The notes: a model not told the origin generated them from the letters alone. A DNA stretch of 64,000 nucleotides from a virus (IMGVR_UViG_3300024331_000152:1-64000), one strand, 5' to 3'; positions 10,374 to 56,596 are shown, counted from the first letter of the stretch. Program-made: numbers and translations.

Positions 10374-13300
10374 ATGGCACAGGCTCAAAATTACGGTCGC
10401 GAAAATAACGGCCAGCGCTTTACTCCGGGCGGGATCGATACGGTGCATCCGTACGATGCGCTGCCTCCGGGAAAATATGCATACCTGCAAAATGTGCGCG
10501 CCTACAAGCAGGATCAGATCATTGGTCGCTCGACAGTAGGAGATCCTGTCATCTCGGGATTGCCGACCCCGATTCATTCGATGGCGATCATCAATGACTC
10601 AACACCAGTTGGACCGGTAGCAGGGTATGTGCGCGTCATCGGCGCTGCCGGGTCAATGTATGTGGACTCAACGCTGGTAGCTTCCGGGTATAGCACAAAC
10701 CCCGTTTCTTTCTGCCCGTTTCGTCCTAATACATCAGTGCAACCGTGGATGTATATCGGCGACAGTTCAGAGGCCGTCATGCTGATCACGCAGTACCTGA
10801 TCGACAACGTAAATGTTTTCTTCCCGTGCTTTGGAGCAACCAAGGTTCGCAGCGATGGTCTGATCTATAAGACTGGTATCAAGGAACCGCAAACAGCTCC
10901 GATCATCTCGACCGAGAACATCACCACGACGGGATCTGATCAGCTTAATGCGAACACGATACCGTGGACGAATGTTAGCGGGACCAATCCCTCCTACAAC
11001 TACGGAATGGTGGACTCCCCGCCATCGATCACGAATCCCGTGATTATTGCTGGCGGAGGTCCTGAGCTTGTCCCGGGATCAACCATCGTTCTTACGGTTG
11101 CCAATACAGGAGGAGCAAGCGTAAACGGCGTTATCGGTGCTCCACCGACGCAATCAGGACCAACTTCGGCGAATTATCCGGGTAGCGCGTCTGGAATTTC
11201 TGGAACAGCAAACATTATCATCGGAGCGTTTACCGATGACTCTGGAAATGTGATCGAGCCGGGTGGATCTCTCCCGCTCGTGTTTTTTATAGGCGCTGGA
11301 ATCACCGTCACTGTTCCTGCTACGGCAAAACAACTTCAGATCGGCATCGATTCATCGTCGAATCATGTCGACGCAAACTGGTTTGGAAACAACACCGGGT
11401 TCTTTACTGTCACGTGGACCGTGACAACCAACGCCGTCTCGTCAAACATGTCCATCCTGAGCGATCTCACCGCCTTCTATTGGGGAGATTCTCCGACTTC
11501 GGGACCGGTATCGGCTTATATTTGGAAAAATCCTAGCGATCCCGGTGGCAGTGGTCCGGCGCGCACAGTAGACAGCGCGGTCGGCAGTACAGCAAATAAT
11601 TCATTCATCTTCGACGCAACCATCATTGCGGGAGTTCCGCAGCTCCCGGGCACAGGCATCCCAGCGAATCCGATGGAATGGTCAGTTCTTAATACGGATA
11701 GCACGATTGCAGGGACGATCCCCGTGTTCACTCCGGCGATCAAAGGTGTCGATGGAAACACCGCGTACCAAAATTTTAATTTCTGCCTGACAGGTCAGCT
11801 TTGGATTCCAGAAGCTGGAGACTATACCTTCGTAATTACAAACCACGATGACATGATCTGGGGAATCGGCGGCGAAGGCGTTAGCGTAGTCAGCGCAAGT
11901 GCCACGCATAACGGCGGTGGCATCAGTACAGCAAAATCGACTCTCGGCCAGACAATCTCGGTAGCTGAAGGTTACCCGCTTCTGCCGCGAGGCAATTATC
12001 CGAGTGGCTCTGGCGGCGACGTCACGGTCTCAACTGTTGTGGTGCGCTTTGCTAATTCTGGCGTCTATCCAATTGAAGTGGACTACGACTACTGGTACCA
12101 CAGCGGGCGTATTCTTTTGATTCAGGCGTCTCCGCAGCCGGGACAGCCGGTGGCAATCATTCCGCCTCTGCCTGCTGACGTACGCAGCAACGTATCGTAC
12201 CGCTATGTGTTTCGCAGCTCGGCAACCGGTGCCGTATCGAATCCTTCTCCTGCGTCAACACCGCAAACAACGCCAGTTCTCGCCGATACTGTAACACCTG
12301 AATATTCACCAGATCCTCAAGTTGATAAGGTGGACTACTTCCGGATCGACGCAGAGTCTGAGAACTATATTTACGTTGCGACAGGACCGAACACAAATCC
12401 GCCAACGCCGATCACAGATGAGTTGACCGATCTCGAAGTGTCGAATAATCCGCTTCTTGAATTCGACAACTACGAGCCGTTTCCGGTCACAGACCTTCCG
12501 CATAAGGGAGTCGTCGATGTGACTGGCGGTGTGATCACGTGGGTGTCTGGAGATCAGTTCAATACACGTTGGCTTCCGGGAACCGAGATCTTGATTGGAT
12601 ACCCAACCGCTCTTGCGTACACGTTCATTGCGCGGCCAACATCGTCAACGACAGTGACGATCCCGGGCGTACCTGACGGAACAAATCTTGAGTACGAAAT
12701 CCCGGAGCCGATCCTCGCCGCTCAGCCTCTTCCTTATCTTTGGGGACCAACCGATAACGCCGCCTACATGTTCGCGTGCGGCGACACGATGAATCCCGGA
12801 ACGCTCTACTTTACAAAAGGCAACAATCCGGACTCAGCTCCAGAGACAAACCAGATCCCTGTAACGAGTCCGTCAGAGCCTCTGCAAAATGGAGTGATCA
12901 CTGCCGGTGTCGGTATGGTATTTTCAACGGAAAGACGCTGGCTCATCTATCCGACATTTACGACTGCACTTGCTGACGTGGAAGGCGTCAGCGGCACGCC
13001 GTTCAATCTTGTTCTCGCGTCATCTGAACGCGGTTTGTATATTCCAACCTGTGTGTGCACCGATGGCGGTAATACCACTTTCTTTCGTGCCAAGGATGGA
13101 ATTTATGCATGCGAATTTGGCGGTCCAGATCAATATATCTGCAATGACATCTTCAACCTCTTTCCTCGTGAAGGATTCTTTCCGCAGCCGGTTACTGTTG
13201 CCGGAAATACAATCCATCCTCCCGACGATACGCGCTGGTTCTTCCAAAAACTTCGCTGGGGCCAGACTGTTCTGTACTACGATTATCAGGATGTTACCGG

Positions 13301-14444
13301 AAACTGGAGAACACTCGTCTACGACATCCTCGCTAAAGGCTGGGGAGTTGATGTGGGACAGCCTAATTTCAGCGCGCACACGTGGGAGACAGGTCCGAAC
13401 ACGGACACTGTTATGGTTGGGTGCGTTGATGGCACTGTGCGTCTCCTCGGCAACGGTAATCCTGAAGCGGTAGAATCCATCGTTATTCCTGTTTCCGTCA
13501 ATGCTGGCGAAGCGCGAGCTTTTAAACAGCTCGGCGATATTTTCATCAAAGCTATCGCTGTAGCCTCGAATCCGATCTTGGTTTCGGTTTATCAAAATCG
13601 CTACGCGACTCCAGTACCGAACATTTCACCAGCTTCTCTAACGGGTACCGGCGATCTAGAGCCTTACATCCTCAATCCAAATGATGGCGAAGTTCGTGAG
13701 TTGATCGACGTCGGAGTTTCGCTGACGTGGCCGACTCCCTCGCTAGATCTTATCGATCTATGGCAACCGTCCTTCCTGCCTCTGCCGGAGGATACGGAAG
13801 ACAGGCCAACCGACTGGGATAATGCCGGGATACAAGGAAACAAATTCATCCAAGGCATGCTGATCGAGGCCAACACATTTGGCCAGCCGAAGGCGATCAC
13901 TGTCCAGAGATCGGACGACGGCGCGATCTTCACACCAAACGAATCTCCGATCACCTTGAATCGCCAGCAGATTATTCCGCTGACCTTCACGCCGCCGTTC
14001 CTTGCTCACTCAGTGAAGTTGATCACGACCGATGGCGTGCCGTGGCGCTTGTGGGGTAATCCGCAGTGGGTCGCGAAGCCTTTCCCAGAAGGAACTGTGG
14101 AGTGGCAGACAGAGTTAAATTCTCTTGGTCAAAAAGGCTGGTTCCATATCCGGGAGATGAACATTCCACTACTCTCAAATAGCGACGTCACCTTGACGCT
14201 CGTGTTCGATCAATGGCCAGTCATCACGGTCACTATCCCGTCAACCGGAGGGTTGCAGATCAAGAATAAGTACACGATGCCACCAAACAAAACAAAGCTC
14301 GTGAGCTTCCGGCTGTCCTCGACGGTCCCCTTCTACGTATTTCAGGATGACGTAGAAGTGAAAATAAAATGGTGGGGAAGTACCGGTCCATACGAGATCA
14401 TCAAGCCGTATGGTGGCCCATCGCAGACAGGAGCTGAGCTGTGA
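10374..14444 (+). CDS. Large tail nozzle/stabilisation-type protein with inserted PA14-like domain
   Basis: 1356 aa, beta-rich; G.LWIPEAGDYTF....DD..GVYPIEVDY PA14-like pattern; precedes ejection genes. Confidence 0.55.
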   Translation: MAQAQNYGRENNGQRFTPGGIDTVHPYDALPPGKYAYLQNVRAYKQDQIIGRSTVGDPVISGLPTPIHSMAIINDSTPVGPVAGYVRVIGAAGSMYVDSTLVASGYSTNPVSFCPFRPNTSVQPWMYIGDSSEAVMLITQYLIDNVNVFFPCFGATKVRSDGLIYKTGIKEPQTAPIISTENITTTGSDQLNANTIPWTNVSGTNPSYNYGMVDSPPSITNPVIIAGGGPELVPGSTIVLTVANTGGASVNGVIGAPPTQSGPTSANYPGSASGISGTANIIIGAFTDDSGNVIEPGGSLPLVFFIGAGITVTVPATAKQLQIGIDSSSNHVDANWFGNNTGFFTVTWTVTTNAVSSNMSILSDLTAFYWGDSPTSGPVSAYIWKNPSDPGGSGPARTVDSAVGSTANNSFIFDATIIAGVPQLPGTGIPANPMEWSVLNTDSTIAGTIPVFTPAIKGVDGNTAYQNFNFCLTGQLWIPEAGDYTFVITNHDDMIWGIGGEGVSVVSASATHNGGGISTAKSTLGQTISVAEGYPLLPRGNYPSGSGGDVTVSTVVVRFANSGVYPIEVDYDYWYHSGRILLIQASPQPGQPVAIIPPLPADVRSNVSYRYVFRSSATGAVSNPSPASTPQTTPVLADTVTPEYSPDPQVDKVDYFRIDAESENYIYVATGPNTNPPTPITDELTDLEVSNNPLLEFDNYEPFPVTDLPHKGVVDVTGGVITWVSGDQFNTRWLPGTEILIGYPTALAYTFIARPTSSTTVTIPGVPDGTNLEYEIPEPILAAQPLPYLWGPTDNAAYMFACGDTMNPGTLYFTKGNNPDSAPETNQIPVTSPSEPLQNGVITAGVGMVFSTERRWLIYPTFTTALADVEGVSGTPFNLVLASSERGLYIPTCVCTDGGNTTFFRAKDGIYACEFGGPDQYICNDIFNLFPREGFFPQPVTVAGNTIHPPDDTRWFFQKLRWGQTVLYYDYQDVTGNWRTLVYDILAKGWGVDVGQPNFSAHTWETGPNTDTVMVGCVDGTVRLLGNGNPEAVESIVIPVSVNAGEARAFKQLGDIFIKAIAVASNPILVSVYQNRYATPVPNISPASLTGTGDLEPYILNPNDGEVRELIDVGVSLTWPTPSLDLIDLWQPSFLPLPEDTEDRPTDWDNAGIQGNKFIQGMLIEANTFGQPKAITVQRSDDGAIFTPNESPITLNRQQIIPLTFTPPFLAHSVKLITTDGVPWRLWGNPQWVAKPFPEGTVEWQTELNSLGQKGWFHIREMNIPLLSNSDVTLTLVFDQWPVITVTIPSTGGLQIKNKYTMPPNKTKLVSFRLSSTVPFYVFQDDVEVKIKWWGSTGPYEIIKPYGGPSQTGAEL

Positions 14445-40883: not shown

Positions 40884-40912
40884 TTGACACTCTGCCGGAA
40901 TCATGGAATGAT
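40884..40912 (+). promoter_or_regulatory. Sigma70-type promoter of tRNA array A
   Basis: TTGACA-17 nt-(TG)nAATGAT; predicted start site at the GTG/ATG (40920/40923) of the leader ORF. Confidence 0.7.
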
Positions 40913-40922
40913 TCATTCCGTG

Positions 40923-40994
40923 ATGAAGTTCTTAGCTCTCAGTTCGCTCTCTCTGTATTGCCTGTCATCGGCAGGCATGGGGGCGTCTATGTAA
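40923..40994 (+). CDS. Attenuator leader peptide A (MKFLALSSLSLYCLSSAGMGASM)
   Basis: 12 of codons 4-16 are Leu/Ser/Tyr/Cys, the amino acids of the downstream tRNAs. Confidence 0.85.
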   Translation: MKFLALSSLSLYCLSSAGMGASM

Positions 40995-41022
40995 GCGCGA
41001 GCTTCAGTAGACTTGGCAACTG

Positions 41023-41048
41023 CCCCCGGCTAACCGCTGGGGGTTTTT
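41023..41048 (+). terminator. Intrinsic terminator (attenuator A)
   Basis: CCCCCGGC-TAACC-GCTGGGGG-TTTTT; 5' arm can instead pair with GGGGGC at 40979-40984. Confidence 0.85.
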
Positions 41049-41052
41049 ATTT

Positions 41053-41129
41053 GCGCGCGTACGCCAACGGAAGAGCGAATCGCCTTAAAAGCGATTGGTT
41101 GATGGGTTCGAATCCCTCGGCGCGCACCA
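41053..41129 (+). tRNA. tRNA-Leu(TAA), short variable arm
   Basis: AATCGC-CTTAAAA-GCGATT, TTCGAAT, ACCA. Confidence 0.8.
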
Positions 41130-41131
41130 AT

Positions 41132-41207
41132 GTACCGGAAGGTAAAGGCTGGAACCAGCGGTCCGCAAAACCGCTTTTAGCGAGTTGAACTCTCGCCCGG
41201 TACTCCA
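41132..41207 (+). tRNA. tRNA-Cys(GCA)
   Basis: GCGGT-CCGCAAA-ACCGC, acceptor GTACCGG/CCGGTAC, U73-CCA. Confidence 0.75.
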
Positions 41208-41217
41208 ATTTTGAAGT

Positions 41218-41294
41218 GCTCCGGTAGCCCAAAGGCAGGAGGCGCACGGTTCAGGTTCGTGACAGTGTGGGTTCGAATCCCACCCGGAGTACCA
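41218..41294 (+). tRNA. tRNA-Leu(CAG)
   Basis: Cloverleaf, loop TTCAGGT, CCA. Confidence 0.85.
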
Positions 41295-41297
41295 AGT

Positions 41298-41376
41298 GCA
41301 CGAGTAGCCCAACTAGGTAGGAGGCACACGCTTGAGGGGCGTGGCAGTATGGGTTCGAATCCCATCTCGTGTACCA
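41298..41376 (+). tRNA. tRNA-Leu(GAG)
   Basis: CACGC-TTGAGGG-GCGTG, CCA. Confidence 0.9.
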
Positions 41377-41387
41377 AATTTAAATGT

Positions 41388-41466
41388 GCCTGCGTAGCCC
41401 AATTAGGTAGGAGGCGTCTGGCTTAGAACCAGAACAGTATGGGTTCGAATCCCTTCGCAGGTACCA
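41388..41466 (+). tRNA. tRNA-Leu(TAG)
   Basis: TCTGG-CTTAGAA-CCAGA, CCA. Confidence 0.9.
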
Positions 41467-41467
41467 T

Positions 41468-41546
41468 GCCCTCGTAGCCCAACTAGGCAGGAGGCACTTC
41501 ATTCAAAACGAAGTCAGTGTCGGTTCGAATCCGACCGAGGGCACCA
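41468..41546 (+). tRNA. tRNA-Leu(CAA)
   Basis: Loop TTCAAAA, acceptor GCCCTCG/CGAGGGC, CCA. Confidence 0.9.
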
Positions 41547-41555
41547 AGTTTTAAC

Positions 41556-41648
41556 GGAGCGTTGGCTGAGTCTGGTTTAAGGCACCTCACTGCTAACGAG
41601 GCGTGACTGTAAAAGGCACCGTGCGTTCGAATCGCACACGCTCCGCCA
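41556..41648 (+). tRNA. tRNA-Ser(GCT)
   Basis: Loop CTGCTAA, long variable arm, G73-CCA. Confidence 0.9.
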
Positions 41649-41655
41649 TTTGAAC

Positions 41656-41743
41656 GGATGAGTGAGCGGAATGGTATCGCCCTGCGTTGGAAGCGCAGCT
41701 CACGTGAAAGCGTGTGCAGGTTCGAGTCCTGTCTCATCCGCCA
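41656..41743 (+). tRNA. tRNA-Ser(GGA)
   Basis: CTGCG-TTGGAAG-CGCAG, long variable arm, GCCA. Confidence 0.9.
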
Positions 41744-41744
41744 T

Positions 41745-41832
41745 GGAAGCACTGGGCATGTGGAGAGCCCACCCGCCTCGAAAGCGGACGTACCGCAAGG
41801 TACTGAGTGTTCGACTCACTCTGCTTCCGCCA
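41745..41832 (+). tRNA. tRNA-Ser(CGA)
   Basis: Loop CTCGAAA, long variable arm, GCCA. Confidence 0.85.
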
Positions 41833-41836
41833 GTTT

Positions 41837-41924
41837 GGGTGTGTGGGCGAGCGCTTTAAGCCTCTGGCCTTGAAAGCCAGCGTACCGAAAGGTACCGTGG
41901 GTTGGAATCCCACCGCACCCGCCA
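41837..41924 (+). tRNA. tRNA-Ser(TGA)
   Basis: CTGGC-CTTGAAA-GCCAG, long variable arm, GCCA. Confidence 0.9.
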
Positions 41925-41930
41925 TGTTGT

Positions 41931-42019
41931 GCAGGCGTCGTGTCTACTGGAAGACCAAGCGGGCTGTAAACTCGCTGCTCCTTCGAGCTATGGGGGTTCG
42001 ATTCCCTCCGCCTGCACCA
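41931..42019 (+). tRNA. tRNA-Tyr(GTA)
   Basis: Loop CTGTAAA, variable arm, ACCA. Confidence 0.85.
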
Positions 42020-45216: not shown

Positions 45217-45291
45217 GGCTGTGTAGCTCAACCAGAGCACCCGTCTTCAAAACGGTAGGTTGCAGGTATACAACCCCTGTCACAGCCACCA
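45217..45291 (+). tRNA. tRNA-like with UCA (opal) anticodon, atypical D/T loops
   Basis: CCGT-CTTCAAA-ACGG, acceptor GGCTGTG/CACAGCC, ACCA; T-loop TATACAACC non-canonical. Confidence 0.6.
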
Positions 45292-46368: not shown

Positions 46369-46708
46369 GGTGGTTGCACCCCGCCTCGCCGCGAGGCTAA
46401 GTCGCGGCAGAGATTTAAGCATGTAGAAGGCAACTAATCAGATTTCGGACGTGGGTTCGAATCCCACCGAGTCCACCAATCAGCTAACGCGCCGGGGCGA
46501 AACGCCTTGGTTCAACGAAAGTTCAGCTAAGAGTTAAAGCTGGTCCGTTGGCTGATTTGTGGGCTCGCCAAGGTTTCGACGGGATCAGAAGACGTTGTGC
46601 AGTTCATGCCGAGTGCTGTGGCCTGCGTTAAGGGACACGGAAAAAACAAATGCAGATGCTTCGGCACTGCCGATGGCAGCCTAAAAACTGACGTCTGAGG
46701 GTGGCCGC
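46369..46708 (+). ncRNA. ssrA: Circularly permuted (two-piece) tmRNA
   Basis: T-arm plus CGAGTCC-ACCA ends 46478; hairpin-closed spacer; GGGCTCG..TTCGAC starts 46561 (G3:U70); tag ORF 46652-46684 ADASALPMAA-stop. Confidence 0.9.
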
Positions 46709-47743: not shown

Positions 47744-47819
47744 GCGCTCGTGGCTCAGCGGCAGAGCGCCGGTCTTCAAAACCGGGTCAGCGTGGGTTCG
47801 AACCTCACCGAGCGCTCCA
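47744..47819 (+). tRNA. Opal suppressor tRNA (UCA), Gly-like acceptor identity
   Basis: CCGGT-CTTCAAA-ACCGG, canonical cloverleaf, G1:C72 C2:G71 G3:C70 U73. Confidence 0.85.
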
Positions 47820-49402: not shown

Positions 49403-50266
49403 ATGATGTATATCAAGCATTTCGTCCTCGCCGTGCGCGTCAACGGTAAAATCCTCAAAGAACATGACCAAGTTGTCCACCTCCCTTTCGGAGCTGAGTA
49501 TGAGCTGTTGCTCAAGAACCTCAACTCGCGCCGCGCGATGGTCGGTGTCTCCATTGACGGCAAGCGTACCAGTGATTGTCGTTTCGTAATTCCAGCTAAC
49601 TCGGAGAGCGTTCTTGAGCGCTACGTCAAAAACGGCAACATGGACTCCGGGAACCGCTTCAAGTTCATCGAACGCACCTCGGCAGTTGAAGAACATCGCG
49701 GAGTGGGATCGGACGACGGTATCGTGCGCGCCGAGTTTTGGGCAGAGCGAGAAGTTGTCACGCTTCCTCGCACAATCATCAATGATTCATGGCTTCCTTC
49801 ATCTCCGTATGATCGCAGGCGTCGCACGCTTGGAAATTCTGGAGGCTTTAGAAGTTTCAGCGGCATCACAGGACAAAGTGTTCCATCTGATGATGTGTCG
49901 TGCATGTACGGTAGTGTTCAAGGTGGAGCTGAGGCCCCGGGATCGAGCTTTAACGTAGGCTCGCTCAATGCGCAGGTGACATACACGTCATCGTTGGGCG
50001 CGGACATGTCGAAGATCGCAGATAACGACGCGGGCATCACCGTCCCGGGCAGCGAGTCGTCGCAGCGCTTCCACTGGACAAACGGCTTCGAGCTGGAGAG
50101 CACAAGCACCGTAATCATACTTCAGCTTCGTGGCGAGATCGGCGGACAGGCTGTTGCTGCGCCGGTCACGGTGGAGTATAAGCCTGTCTGCATCACCTGT
50201 GGCAAGACCAACAAGGGTACCAGCCGTTTCTGTGACCAGTGCGGAACGGCATTGCAAATTCTTTAA
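49403..50266 (+). CDS. Conserved phage protein with C-terminal double zinc ribbon
   Basis: SD AAGGAG; LPFG.EY.LLLKNL..RRA...SIDG; C..CG.......FC.QCG. Confidence 0.75.
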   Translation: MMYIKHFVLAVRVNGKILKEHDQVVHLPFGAEYELLLKNLNSRRAMVGVSIDGKRTSDCRFVIPANSESVLERYVKNGNMDSGNRFKFIERTSAVEEHRGVGSDDGIVRAEFWAEREVVTLPRTIINDSWLPSSPYDRRRRTLGNSGGFRSFSGITGQSVPSDDVSCMYGSVQGGAEAPGSSFNVGSLNAQVTYTSSLGADMSKIADNDAGITVPGSESSQRFHWTNGFELESTSTVIILQLRGEIGGQAVAAPVTVEYKPVCITCGKTNKGTSRFCDQCGTALQIL

Positions 50267-50274
50267 ATAACCTC

Positions 50275-50304
50275 TTGCAATTTGCGCGCATCATAGGTTA
50301 AGGT
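50275..50304 (+). promoter_or_regulatory. Promoter of tRNA array B
   Basis: TTGCAA-18 nt-TAAGGT; shares CTTGCAATTTGCGCGCATC with the array C promoter. Confidence 0.7.
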
Positions 50305-50314
50305 AGGAAGCGTT

Positions 50315-50401
50315 ATGAAACTCAACCGAGCCAATTCGAACCATTCGTTTAATCCAGCGGCACAACCGCAGGGTACAACGCGTGTGCGTGGCTCGGCCTG
50401 A
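50315..50401 (+). CDS. Attenuator leader peptide B (MKLNRANSNHSFNPAAQPQGTTRVRGSA)
   Basis: Codons 13-23 (AAT CCA GCG GCA CAA CCG CAG GGT ACA ACG CGT) are all read by downstream tRNAs. Confidence 0.85.
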   Translation: MKLNRANSNHSFNPAAQPQGTTRVRGSA

Positions 50402-50433
50402 ACAGCATCCTTTAGCAATGCGATGCAGTACAG

Positions 50434-50467
50434 ACCCCCGAGCCTAGATAATAGACTCGGGGGTTTT
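50434..50467 (+). terminator. Intrinsic terminator (attenuator B)
   Basis: ACCCCCGAG...CTCGGGGGT-TTT; CCGAGCC can instead pair with GGCTCGG at 50390-50396. Confidence 0.85.
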
Positions 50468-50999
50468 GATTGGCATGGGAAAGTGGCTGCATCGTGTTTC
50501 GAATATCGATTTTGATTCTCTCACTGGTGATTGCTCTACTTGTGGGCGCGTGAGATTGAAAGTAAAGAAAGGCGGCAGGAGATTTGCATGCGCTGTATCT
50601 GAGCAACGCTGGTGCGATGGACAAAGCGTATCAAAGAGAAGGGCTGCTCGCCGTAGACAAACTAGAAAGTTGCTCGCAAAGCTTCTATCTAGTGGATGTC
50701 GGATATGTCGAGTAGCCAAGAAAGGAATTCATTGTCATCATCTCGATAGTTCCACAAAGAGTTTCAATATTTCGCAAGGGTATACAGACTGTTCCAGAGA
50801 GCTGTTAATTGCCGAGCTGAAAAAATGTATTGCCGTGTGTCAGCAATGCCATACAAAGATTCACTTCAGGCAGTTTGTAGTATCTGAGGATTTGATTTCT
50901 GAGTGGAATAGAGATGTAGATGTTTTATTCACGCGTAGCTCAATGGTAGAGCCCTGCACTGTTAATGCAGTCATTGGGGGTTCGATTCCCTCCGCGTGA
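50466..50999 (+). CDS. HNH endonuclease (reads into tRNA-Asn)
   Basis: C..C...HCHH.D...K.F.IS...ELKKC...CQQCH. Confidence 0.75.
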   Translation: MIGMGKWLHRVSNIDFDSLTGDCSTCGRVRLKVKKGGRRFACAVSEQRWCDGQSVSKRRAARRRQTRKLLAKLLSSGCRICRVAKKGIHCHHLDSSTKSFNISQGYTDCSRELLIAELKKCIAVCQQCHTKIHFRQFVVSEDLISEWNRDVDVLFTRSSMVEPCTVNAVIGGSIPSA

Positions 51000-51003
51000 G
51001 CCA
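50929..51003 (+). tRNA. tRNA-Asn(GTT)
   Basis: CTGCA-CTGTTAA-TGCAG, GCCA. Confidence 0.9.
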
Positions 51004-51010
51004 AATTAGT

Positions 51011-51084
51011 TGCGTCTTCGTTCAGTGGCAGGACGGTTGACTCTGAATCAACACACGGGAGTTCGATTCTCTCAGACGCAGCCA
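51011..51084 (+). tRNA. tRNA-Gln(CTG)
   Basis: GTTGA-CTCTGAA-TCAAC, GCCA. Confidence 0.9.
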
Positions 51085-51092
51085 AATTTTGT

Positions 51093-51168
51093 TGGGAGAT
51101 GGCCGAGCGGCGTAGGCACGAGCCTTTGGATCTCGTACAGGCTGGTTCAACTCCAGCTCTCCCAGCCA
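51093..51168 (+). tRNA. tRNA-Gln(TTG)
   Basis: Loop CTTTGGA, TGGGAGA/TCTCCCA-GCCA. Confidence 0.85.
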
Positions 51169-51169
51169 T

Positions 51170-51245
51170 GCGGATGTAGTTCAATTGGCAGAACGTTGGA
51201 GTGCCACTCCAAAGGTTGCCGGATCGTTGCCGGTCATCCGCTCCA
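51170..51245 (+). tRNA. tRNA-Gly(GCC)
   Basis: TTGGA-GTGCCAC-TCCAA, TCCA. Confidence 0.85.
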
Positions 51246-51282
51246 GTTTGAGGTGAGAGGAATGCATTGAATTGATGATGAC

Positions 51283-51358
51283 GCTGCCGTAGCTCAAGTG
51301 GTAGAGCACCTGTCTCGTAAACAGGAGGTTGGGACTTCGAGTGTCCCCGGTAGCTCCA
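51283..51358 (+). tRNA. tRNA-Thr(CGT)
   Basis: CCTGT-CTCGTAA-ACAGG. Confidence 0.9.
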
Positions 51359-51378
51359 GTTTTCCCTGAGGTGATCTT

Positions 51379-51915
51379 ATGATCCGTAGAACAGTTTTGA
51401 TGCTGAACGCGAGCTACGAACCGCTGCGGATCATCAGCGCAAAGAAGTCCCTGACACTCTTAACCAAGGGTGTTGCCGTGGTGGAGGTACCAACCAAGAT
51501 CCAAGTCCACGCGGGGATCTACTTGCCGAGTGTTATTCGGTTGCGTCATTTCCGCAACGTGCCGCACAAGAGGCCAGTGCCGTCGAGAAAGAACATCTTC
51601 ACCAGAGACGGTTTTCGCTGCTTGTATTGCGGTGCCAAGGCTCCGAAAGTAGTGCTCGAACTTGAGCACATCGTTCCGAGATCGAGAGGCGGAGCAAACG
51701 CTTGGGACAACCTTTGTGCATCTTGTCACGATTGCAACCAGAAGAAGCGTGACAGGACTCCGGAGGAAGCAGGCATGAAGTTGATTCACAGACCTCTGCC
51801 CGCGACCGTACACACCGGCAGGTTCGTCTTGAAGACGATGGGTAACGAAATTGCAGAGTGGGGTCCGTTTCTATGGAAGGACTCTAAGGGCGAACAGAAG
51901 TTGCAGTTCGCATAA
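51379..51915 (+). CDS. HNH endonuclease (McrA-like)
   Basis: [24 protein letters not shown]...[11 protein letters not shown]...[19 protein letters not shown]. Confidence 0.9.
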
Positions 51916-51975
51916 CAAGAAATAGCGCCGGGTTATGGATTGACAATTAAGCTCCGTGTGAAATAAAACGGTCTA

Positions 51976-52368
51976 ATGCCATACAGTGACCCGGCGAAAC
52001 AAAAAGAAGCTCTTCGGCGATGGTATCGCAGAGTTGTTCGTAAAAGACGCACAGATTGGTTTAAAGGAAAGCAATGTGCGACTTGTGGAAGTACGCGAAG
52101 ACTTGAATTGGATCATGTTGATCCAGCGCTGAAGGTGGATCATAAAATTTGGTCATGGAGCGAGAAAAGACGCACTGAAGAGCTTAATAAATGTGTTCCA
52201 CGGTGTAGAACTTGTCACATCGAGAGATCGGCAGAGCAACAACGAAAGCCATTGGTTCACGGAACGCGCGATGGATATATGTGGCATCGTTGTCGCTGTA
52301 GGGAATGCGTTAAAGCTGCGTCGCTCTACCGTAATGAGCAGCGACGTTTGAAGGGACGAAAGAATTAA
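51976..52368 (+). CDS. HNH endonuclease
   Basis: C..CGS...LELDHVDP..K...ELNKC..RC..CH, HGT..GY...CRC..C. Confidence 0.85.
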   Translation: MPYSDPAKQKEALRRWYRRVVRKRRTDWFKGKQCATCGSTRRLELDHVDPALKVDHKIWSWSEKRRTEELNKCVPRCRTCHIERSAEQQRKPLVHGTRDGYMWHRCRCRECVKAASLYRNEQRRLKGRKN

Positions 52369-52369
52369 A

Positions 52370-52444
52370 GCACTCGAAGCATAGTCGGAGATGCCCTCGG
52401 CTTGTATCCGAGAGAACAGAGTTCGAATCTCTGCGAGTGCTCCA
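52370..52444 (+). tRNA. tRNA-Thr(TGT)
   Basis: CTCGG-CTTGTAT-CCGAG. Confidence 0.85.
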
Positions 52445-52510
52445 AAGATGTCGGATGTGGCCCCGAGTTCGAGGAGGAATAGGCGAGAGCTTATCGGGGC
52501 TCAGGTTTAT

Positions 52511-52586
52511 GGAGCTATTGGCCGAGCGGTTTAGGCGCGGGACTGTGACCCCCGACACGAGTGTTCAACTCACTCATAGCTCCCCA
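52511..52586 (+). tRNA. tRNA-His(GTG)
   Basis: Loop CTGTGAC, G-1:C73. Confidence 0.85.
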
Positions 52587-52590
52587 ATTT

Positions 52591-52665
52591 GGGGCTGTAG
52601 TGCTAATGGGAACACACTGGTTTTGCACTCCAGAGTTGAGAGTTCGATTCTCTCCAGCTCCACCA
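52591..52665 (+). tRNA. tRNA-Ala(TGC)
   Basis: G3:U70, loop TTTGCAC. Confidence 0.9.
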
Positions 52666-52714
52666 AATTTACGCAGGCGCTGAGCCCTCTCTGTTCTATA
52701 CGTGACACGCTCAG

Positions 52715-52863
52715 GGAAGAAGATCAAAGGTGTCGCGTATATGCTCGCTTTTGGTTACAACCTTGAAAGAATTAAGGCAGAAATCGCAAAATGCGTCGTA
52801 CGCTGCGCGAACTGTCACCGCCGCCGAACGGCGAAGGTTTTAGGAAATTGGAAGTTGCACCAT
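52715..52863 (+). pseudogene. C-terminal remnant of an HNH endonuclease
   Basis: GKKIKGVAYM...IKAEIAKCVVRCANCHRRRT with no N-terminus or start. Confidence 0.65.
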
Positions 52864-52940
52864 CAGGGCGTAGCCTAGCGGCTTCAGGCACTCGCTTCGG
52901 GAGCGAGATGACGTGAGTTCGAATCTCACCGCCCCGACCA
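52864..52940 (+). tRNA. tRNA-Pro(CGG)
   Basis: CTCGC-TTCGGGA-GCGAG. Confidence 0.9.
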
Positions 52941-52986
52941 TTTTAACGAGCCGGTTTTCATTAAAGAAATCGGCTGAAAATTTTAA

Positions 52987-53064
52987 CCGGGTTTAGCCTA
53001 GTCTGGCTCAGGCACCTGCTTTGGGAGCAGGACGACGGGGGTTCAAATCCCTCAGCCCGGACCA
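52987..53064 (+). tRNA. tRNA-Pro(TGG)
   Basis: CCTGC-TTTGGGA-GCAGG. Confidence 0.9.
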
Positions 53065-53065
53065 T

Positions 53066-53154
53066 GCACCCGTAGCCTAGCGGATTCAGGTAACGGTCTA
53101 CGAAACCGTCGAGGGAAACCTCTTACGCAGGTTCGATTCCTGCCGGGTGCTCCA
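53066..53154 (+). tRNA. tRNA-Arg(ACG) with long variable arm
   Basis: ACGGT-CTACGAA-ACCGT, extra GAGG-GAAA-CCTC arm. Confidence 0.85.
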
Positions 53155-53168
53155 TAATTGTAAGTGTT

Positions 53169-53223
53169 CGGCGCGGTGAGGCTGGGCGTGGCACGGTGAG
53201 GTTTGGTTCGGTATGGTTTGGCA
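53169..53223 (+). repeat. 5-nt periodic (NGGNN)x11 tract
   Basis: cggcg cggtg aggct gggcg tggca cggtg aggtt tggtt cggta tggtt tggca. Confidence 0.8.
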
Positions 53224-53250
53224 TTCTTGCCATGAGGAGGGTTATGCGAA

Positions 53251-53655
53251 TTGAAAAGGACATTTGGTCAGCGAGCTGCTGACTGGGTTACTGAAGCAAG
53301 TGGTAGCTGGCCGTTCATTCTGTGGTCAGTTGTTCTTGGCGTACTCTGGGTCTTGTCGAATGTGAGCAAGGTCCTTGTCTTCGATCCGTATCCTTTCCTG
53401 TTTTTGAACTGGGTGCTGACTGTGATCAGCACGTTGCAATCCCCGCTCATCATGCTGTCGCAGAATCGGCAGAATGAAACTGATCGCGAGCGCGTAGATA
53501 TGATCGTCCAGAAGCTGGACGATCATATCCGGGAAATTAAATTGCGCGCATGGCGAAGTTGTGGTAGGGTAGTCAAGTTGGGCTCAGGCCCGAGATTGAT
53601 CTTTGAAATCAAGTTTCCGTGGGTTGTAAACATGGATGGCCTTAAAAGATCCTGA
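53251..53655 (+). CDS. DUF1003 membrane protein
   Basis: FGQRAAD.....GSWPFI, FDPYPFLFLN..L......Q.P.IMLSQNRQ...DR. Confidence 0.9.
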   Translation: MKRTFGQRAADWVTEASGSWPFILWSVVLGVLWVLSNVSKVLVFDPYPFLFLNWVLTVISTLQSPLIMLSQNRQNETDRERVDMIVQKLDDHIREIKLRAWRSCGRVVKLGSGPRLIFEIKFPWVVNMDGLKRS

Positions 53656-53831: not shown

Positions 53832-53903
53832 TACATGGTAGCTCATTTGGTAGAGCATTCGCCTCTTAAGCGAAGGGTAGTCGGTTCAATTCCGAGTCGC
53901 AGA
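53832..53903 (+). pseudogene. tRNA-Lys(CTT)-like element without paired acceptor stem
   Basis: Intact D arm, TTCGC-CTCTTAA-GCGAA, TCGG-TTCAATT-CCGA; flanks do not pair, no CCA. Confidence 0.6.
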
Positions 53904-54340: not shown

Positions 54341-54468
54341 ACGCGGTACTCAACCGAACCCATCACAAACGTACAGCAAGCGCTTGAGAGATACGGCATC
54401 AAGAACGTGCACGCGGGTCATCTGGAGAAGCTTGCCGAGGTATTTGGGATTGCGGCGAAAAAAGAAGC

Positions 54469-54498
54469 TTGCAATTTGCGCGCATCCTGAGTTAAGCT
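54469..54498 (+). promoter_or_regulatory. Promoter of tRNA array C
   Basis: TTGCAA-18 nt-TAAGCT; 19-bp identity with the array B promoter. Confidence 0.7.
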
Positions 54499-54508
54499 CT
54501 ATTTCGTT

Positions 54509-54577
54509 ATGCAGAGAACTATAGCCATGTCGATCACCAAAGGGACCAAGAGGGTCATTTGGGGAGGCGTGTCTTAG
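54509..54577 (+). CDS. Attenuator leader peptide C (MQRTIAMSITKGTKRVIWGGVS)
   Basis: Contains AGA, AGG, ATA, ATC/ATT, ATG, AAA, AAG, ACC/ACT, GGA/GGG, TGG, GTG, matching downstream anticodons. Confidence 0.85.
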   Translation: MQRTIAMSITKGTKRVIWGGVS

Positions 54578-54603
54578 GGGTCTGCACGAGTAGGTTTCAT
54601 CAG

Positions 54604-54628
54604 ACCCCGACTCAGGTCGGGGTTTTTT
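54604..54628 (+). terminator. Intrinsic terminator (attenuator C)
   Basis: ACCCCGAC-TCAG-GTCGGGGT-TTTTT; CAGACCCC can instead pair with GGGGTCTG at 54577-54584. Confidence 0.9.
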
Positions 54629-54646
54629 GTTGTTTGACAAGTTTAT

Positions 54647-54716
54647 AGGGGATGATCTGGGATCGACGAGGTCTCCAAAACCTCACAGCGGAGTTCAATT
54701 CTCCGATCCCCTGCCA
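54647..54716 (+). tRNA. tRNA-Trp(CCA), minimal D arm
   Basis: GAGGT-CTCCAAA-ACCTC, GCCA. Confidence 0.8.
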
Positions 54717-54719
54717 TTT

Positions 54720-54796
54720 GCCAGCGAAGCAGAAGTGGATATTGCGCGCGTCTCATAAGCGCGTTGTAGTGGGTTCGAGTCCCACCGTTGGCACCA
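54720..54796 (+). tRNA. tRNA-Met/Ile2(CAT)
   Basis: CGCGT-CTCATAA-GCGCG, ACCA. Confidence 0.85.
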
Positions 54797-54798
54797 AG

Positions 54799-54854
54799 TT
54801 CACAGCGGTGTTCGCCTTACTCTGACGGCGCAATACCGTCCCGCTGTGAATCCA
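54799..54854 (+). ncRNA. Mini tRNA-like element
   Basis: TTCACAGCGG/CCGCTGTGAA-TCCA with 5-bp/7-nt arm GACGG-CGCAATA-CCGTC. Confidence 0.5.
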
Positions 54855-54864
54855 GTTTCTGGAC

Positions 54865-54944
54865 GCACGTGTAGCTGCTAGTCGGTATGTAGCAGTCCCC
54901 TTATAAGGGACCGGTTGTGGGTTCGACACCCGCCACGTGCACCA
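54865..54944 (+). tRNA. tRNA-Ile(TAT)
   Basis: GTCCC-CTTATAA-GGGAC, ACCA. Confidence 0.85.
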
Positions 54945-54995
54945 AAATTAGCATCAAACCTGTTACGTCACCGGGAGACTGACAGGAGGAGAGCT

Positions 54996-55202
54996 ATGCT
55001 CATTACCCTGTTTTGGATCATTGCAGTTCTCGTTGTGGCTGGTCTTCTGTTGTACCTGATCAACACGATCCCGGGAATCGATCCAACGATCCACGCACTG
55101 ATCAGGGCTGTTGTGATCATCGTCTGCGTGGTCTTTGTGCTGTACTTTGTGTTCTCGTTGTTTAGCGGAGTGGCAATTCCAAGTCCGCACTTTACGAGGT
55201 AG
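54996..55202 (+). CDS. Small 2-TM membrane protein
   Basis: SD AGGAGG; L.YLIN.IP.ID......IR.VVII. Confidence 0.75.
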   Translation: MLITLFWIIAVLVVAGLLLYLINTIPGIDPTIHALIRAVVIIVCVVFVLYFVFSLFSGVAIPSPHFTR

Positions 55203-55207
55203 TTTTT

Positions 55208-55282
55208 GGGCTGTAAGCTTTGTCGGCGAAGCAATCGACTCTTAATCGATAGAGCAGGGTTCGATTCCCTGACGGCCCACCA
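55208..55282 (+). tRNA. tRNA-Lys(CTT)
   Basis: ATCGA-CTCTTAA-TCGAT. Confidence 0.9.
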
Positions 55283-55340
55283 AATTTTGCGAAGGAGAAG
55301 TGAGATGCGAAAACAGAAAGATGACCCAGATAAACGAATT

Positions 55341-55416
55341 GGGGTCGTCGCATAGAGGCAACTGCAACGGACTTTTAATCCGAATGACGTGAGTTCGAAT
55401 CTCACCGGCCCCACCA
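55341..55416 (+). tRNA. tRNA-Lys(TTT)
   Basis: CGGA-CTTTTAA-TCCG. Confidence 0.9.
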
Positions 55417-55425
55417 TAGTTTTTT

Positions 55426-55502
55426 GCTGGCGTAACTCAGACGGACAGAGTGCCTGTCTTCTAAACAGGAAGCCGCTGGTTCGACTCCAGCCGTCAGCAC
55501 CA
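55426..55502 (+). tRNA. tRNA-Arg(TCT)
   Basis: CCTGT-CTTCTAA-ACAGG. Confidence 0.9.
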
Positions 55503-55503
55503 T

Positions 55504-55579
55504 GGCCCCTTAGCTCAGTCGGAAGAGCGGATCGGTCCTAACGATAAGGTCGGGAGTTCGAATCTCTCAGGGGTCACCA
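55504..55579 (+). tRNA. tRNA-Arg(CCT)
   Basis: ATCG-GTCCTAA-CGAT. Confidence 0.85.
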
Positions 55580-55585
55580 AGTTTT

Positions 55586-55662
55586 GCTGCCGTATCGGCC
55601 TCGCCTCCGAAGCGAGATCCCGTAGGTGGATAAGGCTGGTTCGAATCCAGTCGGCAGCTCCA
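55586..55662 (+). tRNA. D-armless tRNA-Arg(CCG)-like element
   Basis: GCTGCCG/CGGCAGC-TCCA, CTCGC-CTCCGAA-GCGAG, canonical T arm, no D stem. Confidence 0.7.
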
Positions 55663-55667
55663 GTTTT

Positions 55668-55742
55668 GCGGATGTAGATCAACGGTAGATCGGGTGTCTT
55701 ACAAGCACTTCGTCGTGGGTTCAACTCCTACCATCCGCACCA
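55668..55742 (+). tRNA. tRNA-Val(TAC)
   Basis: GGTGT-CTTACAA-GCACT, ACCA. Confidence 0.85.
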
Positions 55743-56220
55743 ACTTGTCGTGATCGAGTTCCCAATGGTGATTACGGCACAAGCCGACAAGATTATTAGG
55801 GCGATTAACGATTCCTAATGTCGTAGATTCGGCGAACTCACAAACGGGAGTGAGATGACAACAATCAACGTAGAGGTTGTAGCCGCAGATGGCGCATTTC
55901 TTCAAGAGTCCCGCTCTTAAAGCAACGCTCCTTGCATGAGATCGCACTACAGTATCGTAGGCGTTTCGAGATCCGGACTTTTTAAGATCTGCTAGGGTGA
56001 CAGATTCAAAATCTCGGCGACGGCAATCGCGACAACTTTTAACCCGATAGCGGTCTAGTATTTTGCCGCATTTTGGGCATGAATATATCTTTCGCGCATA
56101 CCCTTTCCAAGGGGTTCTAATTCTTTCTTTATTGTTGTAGATGGCCGCACATGACGAATTACAAAAACGTGGATTATTTGTTGGAACGTCGCAGTTGGCG
56201 CAGGTACGACGAAAGTTCAT
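55699..56220 (-). CDS. HNH endonuclease (antisense insertion in array C)
   Basis: FCNSSCAA..NN, CAICGY...VDCCH......N...NLV.LC.NHHWE.D; leaderless TACCAT-6 nt-ATG. Confidence 0.85.
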   Translation of the reverse strand: MNFRRTCANCDVPTNNPRFCNSSCAAIYNNKERIRTPWKGYARKIYSCPKCGKILDRYRVKSCRDCRRRDFESVTLADLKKSGSRNAYDTVVRSHARSVALRAGLLKKCAICGYNLYVDCCHLTPVCEFAESTTLGIVNRPNNLVGLCRNHHWELDHDKLVRMVGVEPTTKCL

Positions 56221-56347
56221 AGAAAGATGGTACCGGAGCTGTAGACAACGGCACCACCTTTTTAAAGAAGTAGCACAGGTTATCGTGCGAAAGAGTCATT
56301 CCTTATTCTGGACAAGACAAGGACTGGCTGTATGTTCAAAATTGAAC

Positions 56348-56424
56348 GCTGCCGTAGCTCAGTTGGCCAGAGCACACCCTTGGTAAGGGTGAGGTCGTCA
56401 GTTCGAAACTGACCGGTAGCTCCA
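56348..56424 (+). tRNA. tRNA-Thr(GGT)
   Basis: CACCC-TTGGTAA-GGGTG. Confidence 0.95.
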
Positions 56425-56430
56425 TATTGT

Positions 56431-56506
56431 TGGCGGATAGCTCAGGTGGTCAGAGCACGCGACCGATAATCGCGAGGCCGGAGTTCAACTCTCCGTCCGC
56501 CAACCA
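56431..56506 (+). tRNA. tRNA-Ile(GAT)
   Basis: CGCGA-CCGATAA-TCGCG. Confidence 0.85.
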
Positions 56507-56512
56507 AAGTTA

Positions 56513-56596
56513 GCGGGGGTCGCTCAGTGGTAGAGCCGCTGCCTTCCAAGCAGCCGACCTTGTGTCATGCGGGTTCGAATCCCGTCCCCCGCTCCA
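56513..56596 (+). tRNA. tRNA-Gly(TCC) with extended variable arm
   Basis: GCTGC-CTTCCAA-GCAGC, TCCA. Confidence 0.9.

Follow-up and report, generated by a model that had tools for sequence, protein, structure and literature searches.

A putative leader-peptide attenuator ahead of a tRNA array in the genome of a large phage

The transfer RNA (tRNA) genes of phages are usually debated in terms of why they are carried, with codon usage, host tRNA decay and escape from anticodon nucleases as the explanations at issue, and, to our knowledge, the control that phages exert over their own tRNA genes is essentially undescribed. Multivalent leader-peptide attenuators are familiar from ilvGMEDA, whose leader ilvL carries Ile, Val and Leu codons, and from thr (thrL; Thr and Ile codons), with trpL, hisL and leuL as further leaders, and in Escherichia coli the phenylalanyl-tRNA synthetase operon pheST is controlled by attenuation through the leader pheM. 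We describe here unit B (positions 50275–53154), located in the first 64 kb (IMGVR_UViG_3300024331_000152:1-64000, hereafter the window) of a single 142.8-kb viral contig (52.9 % G+C), which is probably a ribosome-mediated (leader-peptide) transcription attenuator gating a phage tRNA array. The contig looks like an uncultured large phage, judging from its relatives among IMG/VR viral contigs, a RusA gene, many HNH genes and a tail-fibre-like gene. Another leader peptide, pheL, belongs to the attenuators of amino-acid operon type (PMC3082878). The only inducible tRNA array found in the literature searched is the long array (trn operon) of Anabaena sp. PCC 7120, which is stress-inducible and is controlled at its promoter by TrcR, a ribbon-helix-helix (RHH) repressor acting on direct repeats (PMC8421152, PMC10272220).

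Unit B comprises a promoter-like site, a leader open reading frame (ORF) of 28 codons, an intrinsic terminator and array B, a set of 11 tRNA genes identified with ARAGORN at 50929–53154 and interspersed with HNH genes (Table 1). An earlier note on this DNA had read codons 13–23 of the leader as AAT CCA GCG GCA CAA CCG CAG GGT ACA ACG CGT and had claimed that, together with CAT at codon 10, they cover all 11 tRNAs. The reading and its translation agree with ours, and comparison of the ARAGORN anticodons with the leader codons finds each of the 11 tRNAs sampled by a cognate codon, the split pairs CAA/CAG, CCA/CCG and ACA/ACG being represented by one codon of each kind as that note had stated. 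Under conservative wobble rules (G34 reading C or U, C34 reading G, U34 reading A or G, and A34 taken as inosine), 18 of the 27 codons of leader B are cognate to its own array. Each cognate codon is present once or twice, with no runs, and codons 13–23 form an unbroken stretch of 11 cognate codons (the core of what we call the checklist codons), which none of the other small ATG ORFs in the genome can match (505 examined in all). Random draws from genome codon usage reached at least 18 cognate codons 29 times in 200,000.

Two sister units, A and C, lie in the same window, each with its own promoter, leader, terminator and tRNA array, and their leaders follow their own arrays in the same way. 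Leader A has 12 of 22 codons cognate to its own array (3 and 4 against the other two), leader B matches the other two arrays with only 4 and 2 codons, and leader C has 14 of 21 (2 and 2 against the others); random codon draws matched the observed counts of leaders A and C 18 and 4 times, respectively, per 200,000. Every tRNA gene of the contig is on the + strand, within the interval from 41 to 56.6 kb, and 35 of them are found at the default ARAGORN threshold. A lowered threshold adds tRNA-Cys-gca (41132–41207) and tRNA-Trp-cca (54647–54712), both backed by alignment to the tRNAs that occupy the same slots in related contigs. Leader A samples the first with TGC and leader C the second with TGG, and when these two are counted the scores become 13/22 for leader A and 15/21 for leader C; a few further weak calls at this threshold were left unused. 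The tRNA-Cys-gca has an unusual T-loop. Short ORFs are common, and one may ask whether the resemblance of leaders to arrays arose by chance. Against this, leaders A, B and C rank first to third among the 67 small ORFs that lie, genome-wide, upstream of at least three tRNAs (terminators being ignored in this ranking), and the pattern recurs in independent lineages, as described below; we regard chance resemblance as scarcely credible.

Arrays B and C divide the Arg, Thr and Gly isoacceptors between them, and the leaders follow this division. The Arg, Thr and Gly codons of leader B (CGA, CGT, CGT, ACA, ACG, GGT and GGC) are readable only by array B tRNAs, while those of leader C (AGA, AGG, ACT, ACC, ACC, GGG and GGA) are readable only by array C tRNAs, with the addition of one GGC. 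In the window alone the choice of own-array synonymous codons is 7/0 versus 1/7 (p ~0.001, hand calculation), and in the window plus one related contig, L003, it is 14/0 versus 1/16 (Fisher p 5.7e-8). L003 also carries an extra Arg-ccg gene in array C and a CGG codon in the corresponding leader, the window being without either. On these counts the match is one of codons and not only of amino acids, and this bears on the possibility that the same attenuator has as its signal amino-acid starvation, sensed through the charging of tRNAs, as happens in the trp, his and ilv operons. Unit B has the anatomy of the classical amino-acid attenuators, and the decoding rate depends on charged tRNA, low charging and low abundance being indistinguishable in this respect. 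Nevertheless, extra tRNA would give no relief from amino-acid starvation, the synonymous codons track the isoacceptors of the leader's own array, and each leader mixes some 9–11 amino acids with one or two codons for each, and we consider a starvation signal unlikely.

The second line of evidence comes from alternative pairings in the leader RNA. In minimum-free-energy folds, the untranslated unit B RNA forms a long hairpin, at the base of which CCGAGCC (codons 4–6, segment 1) pairs with GGCTCGG (codons 26–28, segment 2), the checklist codons lying in the upper part. The terminator is a 12-pair GC-rich hairpin (50434–50464) followed by TTTTGATT, and its 5' arm contains a second copy of CCGAGCC (50438–50444, segment 3) to which segment 2 is also complementary, as the earlier note had proposed, which gives a mutually exclusive set of 1:2, 2:3 and 3:4 pairings. 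Segment 2 lies near the ORF terminus, 5–11 nucleotides (nt) upstream of the last base of the stop codon, within the stretch that a ribosome positioned on that codon would cover. In a simulation of ribosome position, only the RNA downstream of the ribosome was folded, up to synthesis of the 3' arm. With the A site at codons 2–22 the terminator 5' arm was sequestered by GGCTCGG, and with the A site anywhere from codon 24 to the stop codon the arm was completely free; this is the pattern that an attenuator needs, and it brackets checklist codons 10–23.

Relatives preserve the complementarity between ORF end and terminator, and nearly all units have it. Across 26 units, the 32-nt stretch around the stop codon is in most cases more complementary to the terminator 5' arm than are shuffled sequences (pooled p 2e-14, a value inflated by the relatedness of the units). 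The partners differ between lineages, being GGCTCGG/CCGAGCC in the window, GGGGCTC/GAGCCCC in L002, GGGGTCTC/GAGGCCCC in L084 and AGGTGGC/GCCACCT in L123. Because relatives thus keep the 2:3 pairing by means of different sequences, the antiterminator pairing, as judged from these partners, covaries across them. Some other measures were set aside: equilibrium folding with a masked ribosome footprint, in which pairs across the ribosome were allowed, gave the terminator in almost every state and was uninformative; the number of terminator-arm nucleotides paired upstream did not discriminate from shuffles, GC-rich arms pairing with anything, although partner position and the duplex energy of the stop-proximal stretch proved informative; and a column-wise count of pairs in the 2:3 helix on a MAFFT alignment of 11 B-type units was meaningless, the spacer shifting register.

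Our working hypothesis is that RNA polymerase would start at or a few nucleotides upstream of the ATG, and that a ribosome would then translate the 28-codon leader. If all codons were decoded fast, the ribosome at the end of the ORF would cover segment 2, the 3:4 terminator would form and transcription would stop before the HNH genes and tRNAs. If charged tRNA were scarce for any one of the checklist codons (codon 10 to codon 22 or 23), the ribosome would stall and keep segment 1 apart from segment 2; segment 2 would then pair with CCGAGCC of the nascent 5' arm, no terminator would form, and polymerase would read through into the HNH genes and the 11 tRNAs. An untranslated leader would allow 1:2 and 3:4 both to form, giving termination. 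The leader would test for the very tRNAs that the array encodes, and such an arrangement would therefore constitute a negative feedback loop on decoding capacity, which a shortage of any one tRNA would turn on and a sufficiency of all would turn off. The same control would be exerted by units A and C over their own tRNA sets. Candidates for the physiological trigger are depletion or cleavage of the host's tRNAs and the codon demand of the phage itself.

The start site assumed here is placed from promoter geometry only. The ATG of leader B (50315) lies 10 nt past the -10-like TAAGGT, and in about 20 homologous or analogous units the -10 element ends 6–10 nt before the start codon, and for this reason the leader messenger RNAs are probably leaderless or nearly so. 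The 19-mer CTTGCAATTTGCGCGCATC of the unit B promoter is repeated exactly at 54468–54486, ahead of leader C.

Homologous leaders were sought with profile-based searches of loci fetched through homologues of a 287-residue zinc-ribbon protein encoded just upstream of unit B; neither a search of viral contigs for exact copies of the promoter box nor a locus search with a single protein gave a match, and blastn against cultured phages returned only tRNA matches. Ten further B-type leaders were obtained (L001, L002, L003, L084, L085, L086, L123, L164, L165 and L166), in all of which the ORF is kept at 25–31 codons, with a TTGACA-N17-TAnnnT promoter upstream and a terminator and tRNA-Asn downstream. 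A hairpin at the position of the spacer hairpin of unit B is also kept, as TCGCATAGCGA in L084, L085, L086 and L166. All 11 B-type leaders hold at least one each of CAA, CAG, CCA, CCG, ACA, ACG, GCA and GCG, together with His, Gly-GGT, Asn-AAT, Phe and CGN codons. The peptides nevertheless differ in the order of their residues (for example MKFRATHTGFTTPAAQPQGNTPDVWGSA, MRTFTHTFAATQPTQPAGNRGSS and MTTATTTRFGFTPAAQPQGNHASTGGGSSLD), and L002 and L084 have CAA and CAG in the opposite order, one of each being retained. A-type and C-type leaders likewise recur, in L003, L119, L164, L165, L166 and L001, two of them starting with GTG.

In more distant phages the tRNAs are grouped in other ways, and the leaders change accordingly. 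In L072 the 32 tRNAs are split into sets of 5, 21 and 6, and three leaders (MDARAAARPWPP..., MRFIKQHEHIQTRGRNTVGMDTFVPEVTG and ...LASSSRLRLSSLRLSYCSSL) follow the split: the first, with DARAAARPWPP, precedes Pro, Ala, Trp, Pro and Arg tRNAs, the second precedes the 21 tRNAs and samples 19 of them, and the third, rich in Leu, Ser, Tyr and Cys, precedes Leu, Tyr, Ser, Leu, Cys and Ser tRNAs. A leader with ...TATPTNHPAATA... stands ahead of Thr, His, Ala and Pro tRNAs in L032, one with ...FQLDPRSYEHTQPF... ahead of Pro, Pro, Gln, Tyr, Glu, Glu, Asp, His, Phe, Trp and Leu tRNAs in L050 and L029, and L105 likewise has its own tRNA set matched by its leader. When leaders were permuted among arrays within genomes, the true assignment was the single best of 1728. 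The same architecture is present in the cultured Caulobacter phage phiCbK (L169, JX100813), which has two leader-like ORFs. One is gp083 (locus 2541–2678; 45 residues, annotated as hypothetical), which is rich in Leu, Ser, Lys and Pro, is followed by an annotated terminator and precedes Pro (two), Lys (two), Leu (three) and Ser (two) tRNAs; the other is an unannotated ORF of 32 codons (locus 4342–4440; MSKTYRQFVRQIQVVRNI...) followed by a terminator and by Phe, Val, Ile (two), Val, Gln (two) and Gly tRNAs. Both look like tRNA-array attenuator leader peptides, and the phiCbK genome paper makes no mention of leader peptides for tRNA arrays.

These comparisons also bear on whether the peptide is itself functional, by nascent-chain arrest or as a small regulatory protein, with its match to the array incidental. 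In favour of this, the closer relatives show good conservation of the core PAAQPQG. Outside the core, however, the residues are reordered while the codon content persists, the conserved core doubles as an RNA-level hairpin (GCGG-CACAA-CCGC), and leader A, leader C and the leaders of L072, L050, L032 and phiCbK, unrelated in sequence, each fit their own array. A functional peptide with an incidental array match therefore seems to us very unlikely.

A further alternative is that the leader and hairpin are an ordinary micro-gene with a terminator of its own, or an insulator that ends transcription arriving from upstream, the tRNAs being expressed constitutively from other promoters or through a fixed leak past the terminator, without control by leader translation. 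The terminators are indeed strong and favoured on thermodynamic grounds, in the window terminator and tRNAs are set apart by 460 nt of HNH gene, and a TTGACA-like motif (GACAAGTTTAT) follows several terminators. The earlier note had itself named independent promoters of the tRNAs as an observation that would speak against attenuation, and a consensus scan found no promoter between terminator B and the tRNAs or inside array B. In the units compared, the gap from terminator to first tRNA is 7–37 nt, the exceptions being unit B of the window (465 nt), L086 (458 nt), L029 and L050, and the units with the short gap therefore have no room for a separate promoter. Moreover, a micro-gene or insulator of this kind would leave unexplained the own-array codon match, both here and in phages with other partitions of their tRNAs, the covarying complementarity between ORF end and terminator 5' arm, and the codon content that is kept in shuffled order. 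We judge this alternative to be distinctly unlikely.

Attenuation thus remains the reading that we favour, and each sequence-level prediction of the earlier note's attenuator interpretation that was examined proved correct. The anatomy, the codon–anticodon match, the alternative pairings and their conservation are visible in the sequence itself; leader translation, the start site, a kinetic competition of the structures, the physiological trigger and regulation as such are what we infer from it. Several observations nevertheless weigh against it. The U-tract of terminator B (TTTTGATT) is short, and at equilibrium the terminator is always some 10 kcal/mol more stable than the antiterminated fold; because of the latter the switch would have to be kinetic, as in classical attenuators. 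The insertion of about 460 nt of HNH gene before tRNA-Asn could conceal a promoter outside the consensus. Related phages are not independent of one another, and pooled p-values are inflated as a result. With one or two test codons per tRNA and no run, sensitivity to a partial shortage may be low. Codon 12 of leader B, TTT (Phe), has no Phe tRNA in array B of the window, the match being imperfect on short time-scales; in L086 no Gln, Gln and Gly tRNAs are present at the homologous place and the leader still has CAA, CAG and GGT; and Pro-ggg is unsampled in the leaders of L001, L003 and L164. Judged from these cases, the match of leader to array lags behind recent changes in the array. For codon 12 an explanation can be given: tRNA-Phe-gaa is present in the homologous arrays of L001, L003, L164, L165 and L166, and because in the window an HNH fragment occupies the slot that holds it in relatives, tRNA-Phe appears to have been lost recently from array B, leaving an orphan TTT in the leader.

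Table 1. Positions of the elements of unit B and of its sister units in the window
Feature	Position	Strand	Details
Sister unit A	40884..42019	+	Promoter; leader 40923–40994 (MKFLALSSLSLYCLSSAGMGASM); terminator 41022–41044; array Leu (five), Cys, Ser (four), Tyr
Promoter-like site, unit B	50275..50304	+	TTGCAA (-35, 50275–50280); 18-nt spacer; TAAGGT (-10, 50299–50304)
Leader ORF B	50315..50401	+	28 codons and TGA (50399–50401); predicted peptide MKLNRANSNHSFNPAAQPQGTTRVRGSA
Segment 1, CCGAGCC	50326..50332	+	Codons 4–6; pairs with segment 2 in untranslated RNA (minimum-free-energy folds)
Regulatory (checklist) codons	50342..50383	+	CAT (codon 10), TTT (codon 12), codons 13–23
Segment 2, GGCTCGG	50390..50396	+	Codons 26–28; complementary to segments 1 and 3
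Spacer hairpin, GCATC...GATGC	50405..50426	+	Small; between segments 2 and 3
Intrinsic terminator	50434..50467	+	5' arm ACCCCCGAGCCTA; loop GATAA; 3' arm TAGACTCGGGGGT; then TTTTGATT
HNH gene	50475..50999	+	Between terminator and tRNA-Asn; PHROG match
tRNAs Asn-gtt, Gln-ctg, Gln-ttg, Gly-gcc, Thr-cgt	50929..51358	+	ARAGORN
HNH_5 endonuclease gene	51379..51915	+	After Thr-cgt
Second HNH endonuclease gene	51976..52368	+	phrog_4234, E 2.7e-32
tRNAs Thr-tgt, His-gtg, Ala-tgc	52370..52665	+	ARAGORN
HNH C-terminal fragment, 58 residues	52702..52878	+	In the slot of relatives' tRNA-Phe-gaa, in some also Pro-ggg
tRNAs Pro-cgg, Pro-tgg, Arg-acg	52864..53154	+	ARAGORN
Sister unit C	54469..56596	+	Promoter box as in unit B; leader 54509–54577 (MQRTIAMSITKGTKRVIWGGVS); terminator 54602–54625; array Trp, Met, Ile, Lys (two), Arg (two), Val, Thr, Ile, Gly

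Comparison with PHROGs places HNH endonucleases at 50475–50996, 51379–51912 and 51976–52365 and an HNH fragment at 52702–52875. The earlier note had placed an HNH gene between the terminator and the first tRNA, inside the regulated unit. The ORF is indeed present (50466/50475–50999; phrog_2255, E 2.7e-11), a Pfam search leaving it undetected in spite of the PHROGs match, and by position it does belong to the unit, lying past the terminator with no consensus promoter of its own; that the HNH genes are co-regulated with the tRNAs would follow only if the attenuator works. The last 71 nt of this first HNH gene overlap tRNA-Asn. The gene is absent from the closest relative, L001, in which the terminator is 8 nt from tRNA-Asn, and it is for this reason taken to be a recent insertion. 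L086 has an HNH gene of visibly different sequence (compared by eye, no family search) inserted at the same place behind the terminator, and because the two differ the slot must have been colonised more than once. The HNH_5 gene after Thr-cgt, unlike these sporadic insertions, retains its position in L001, L003, L086, L164 and L165. In L166 the gene in the HNH_5 slot (11695–13344) encodes 549 residues with Hint/intein and LAGLIDADG hits.

Other features of the region may be recorded. A GACAAGTTTAT-like motif is found once in the window, at 54636–54646 in unit C, where it separates the U-tract of the terminator from the first tRNA, and is conserved directly before the first tRNA of B-type and C-type arrays in L001, L002, L003, L164, L165 and L166; it may act as a signal for processing or belong to the 5' leader of the tRNA. 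Rfam finds a tRNA at 45217–45288 and a partial tRNA at 53838–53898, both missed by ARAGORN. A permuted (two-piece) transfer-messenger RNA (tmRNA) with the tag ADASALPMAA lies between the tRNA arrays at 46419–46684, and relatives also have a tmRNA (tags ADANLPLAA and AEPMALPMAA). A UCA-anticodon tRNA at 47744–47819 (labelled 'SeC' by ARAGORN; Rfam tRNA, 59 bits), with counterparts in L001 (3588–3664) and L164 (6480–6556), belongs to none of the three leader-controlled arrays and is possibly a reader of opal (UGA) codons. The idea that it reads through the TGA stop of leader B was dropped, the stops of homologous leaders varying between TGA, TAG and TAA. The 287-residue protein used in the locus searches (49403–50266) has a C-terminal zinc ribbon and belongs to a large jumbo-phage protein family, with thousands of homologues on large phage-like contigs. 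Its homologue in Xanthomonas phage XacN1 (L167, 20001–20819) is encoded directly after the tail sheath gene, a position which suggests that the protein may be structural. Downstream of unit B, a G-rich tract with a GGYNN-like period of 5 nt (53160–53250) lies between tRNA-Arg and a DUF1003 gene (53251–53655), which likewise follows array B in L001.

It is tempting to speculate more widely. Large phages may run their tRNA genes as demand-driven homeostats, in which a leaderless test ORF for each array would probe, one isoacceptor at a time, the cell's ability to decode the codons that the array serves and would allow transcription only on failure of one of them. The phage could in this way sense and repair host tRNA depletion, whether by anticodon nucleases or by infection-induced decay, and the leader would act as a built-in counter-defence sensor, with homing HNH genes having repeatedly settled just behind the terminator to be expressed on read-through only. 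This extension is tentative; we think it quite possible rather than probable. If the attenuator is real, viral tRNA arrays would gain their first described cis-regulatory logic, and attenuation of the trp type would for the first time be seen to act on tRNA genes: the arrays would be supplied on demand, and the leader would be a read-out of the tRNAs that the phage expects to run short. The proposal is readily testable because the cultured phiCbK has the same architecture. Leaders of this kind should also aid annotation, predicting the tRNAs of one transcription unit and flagging recent tRNA losses such as that suggested by the orphan TTT, and a natural multi-input sensor of decoding capacity could be put to use as a compact reporter for the availability of tRNAs.

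Full-text literature searches, together with the phiCbK genome and Anabaena trn papers, yielded no account of tRNA genes being attenuated through a leader peptide, subscription-only papers being outside the search. The Anabaena trn operon resembles unit B as a supplementary set of tRNA genes, silent unless impaired translation induces it, as is proposed here, but it is controlled by a promoter repressor, neither a leader ORF nor an attenuator is described for it, and the terms 'attenuat', 'leader' and 'terminator' are absent from its description (PMC8421152). T-box elements share with unit B the attenuation of transcription according to tRNA status, read through recognition of a codon-anticodon-like kind, and the control of translation-apparatus genes; they bind uncharged tRNA directly and have no ORF, whereas unit B has a leader ORF, and scans of the region at gathering and E-value thresholds gave no match to the T-box (RF00230) or to any other cis-regulatory Rfam family. 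The pheST operon with its pheM leader is nearer, a leader-peptide attenuator set over a component of translation and responding to the decoding of cognate codons, yet it serves one synthetase and one amino acid in a cell, whereas unit B would serve the tRNA genes themselves and test many codons. With the attenuators of amino-acid operons unit B shares a short leader ORF, regulatory codons, an intrinsic terminator and exclusive 1:2, 2:3 and 3:4 pairings. Neither the biosynthesis or synthetase genes nor the codon runs that characterize this classical class are found in it. Where amino-acid operons control enzymes, unit B would control 11 tRNAs and the HNH genes, and in place of runs of one or two codons it has a checklist of single codons for about 11 isoacceptors. 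Its synonymous codons are set by anticodon, its mRNA is apparently leaderless or nearly so, it is viral, and its product would feed back on the sensor. Unit B is closest to the multivalent ilv and thr leaders, in which, as proposed here, segment 2 is masked when the ribosome is at the stop codon and more than one amino acid is tested by a single leader.

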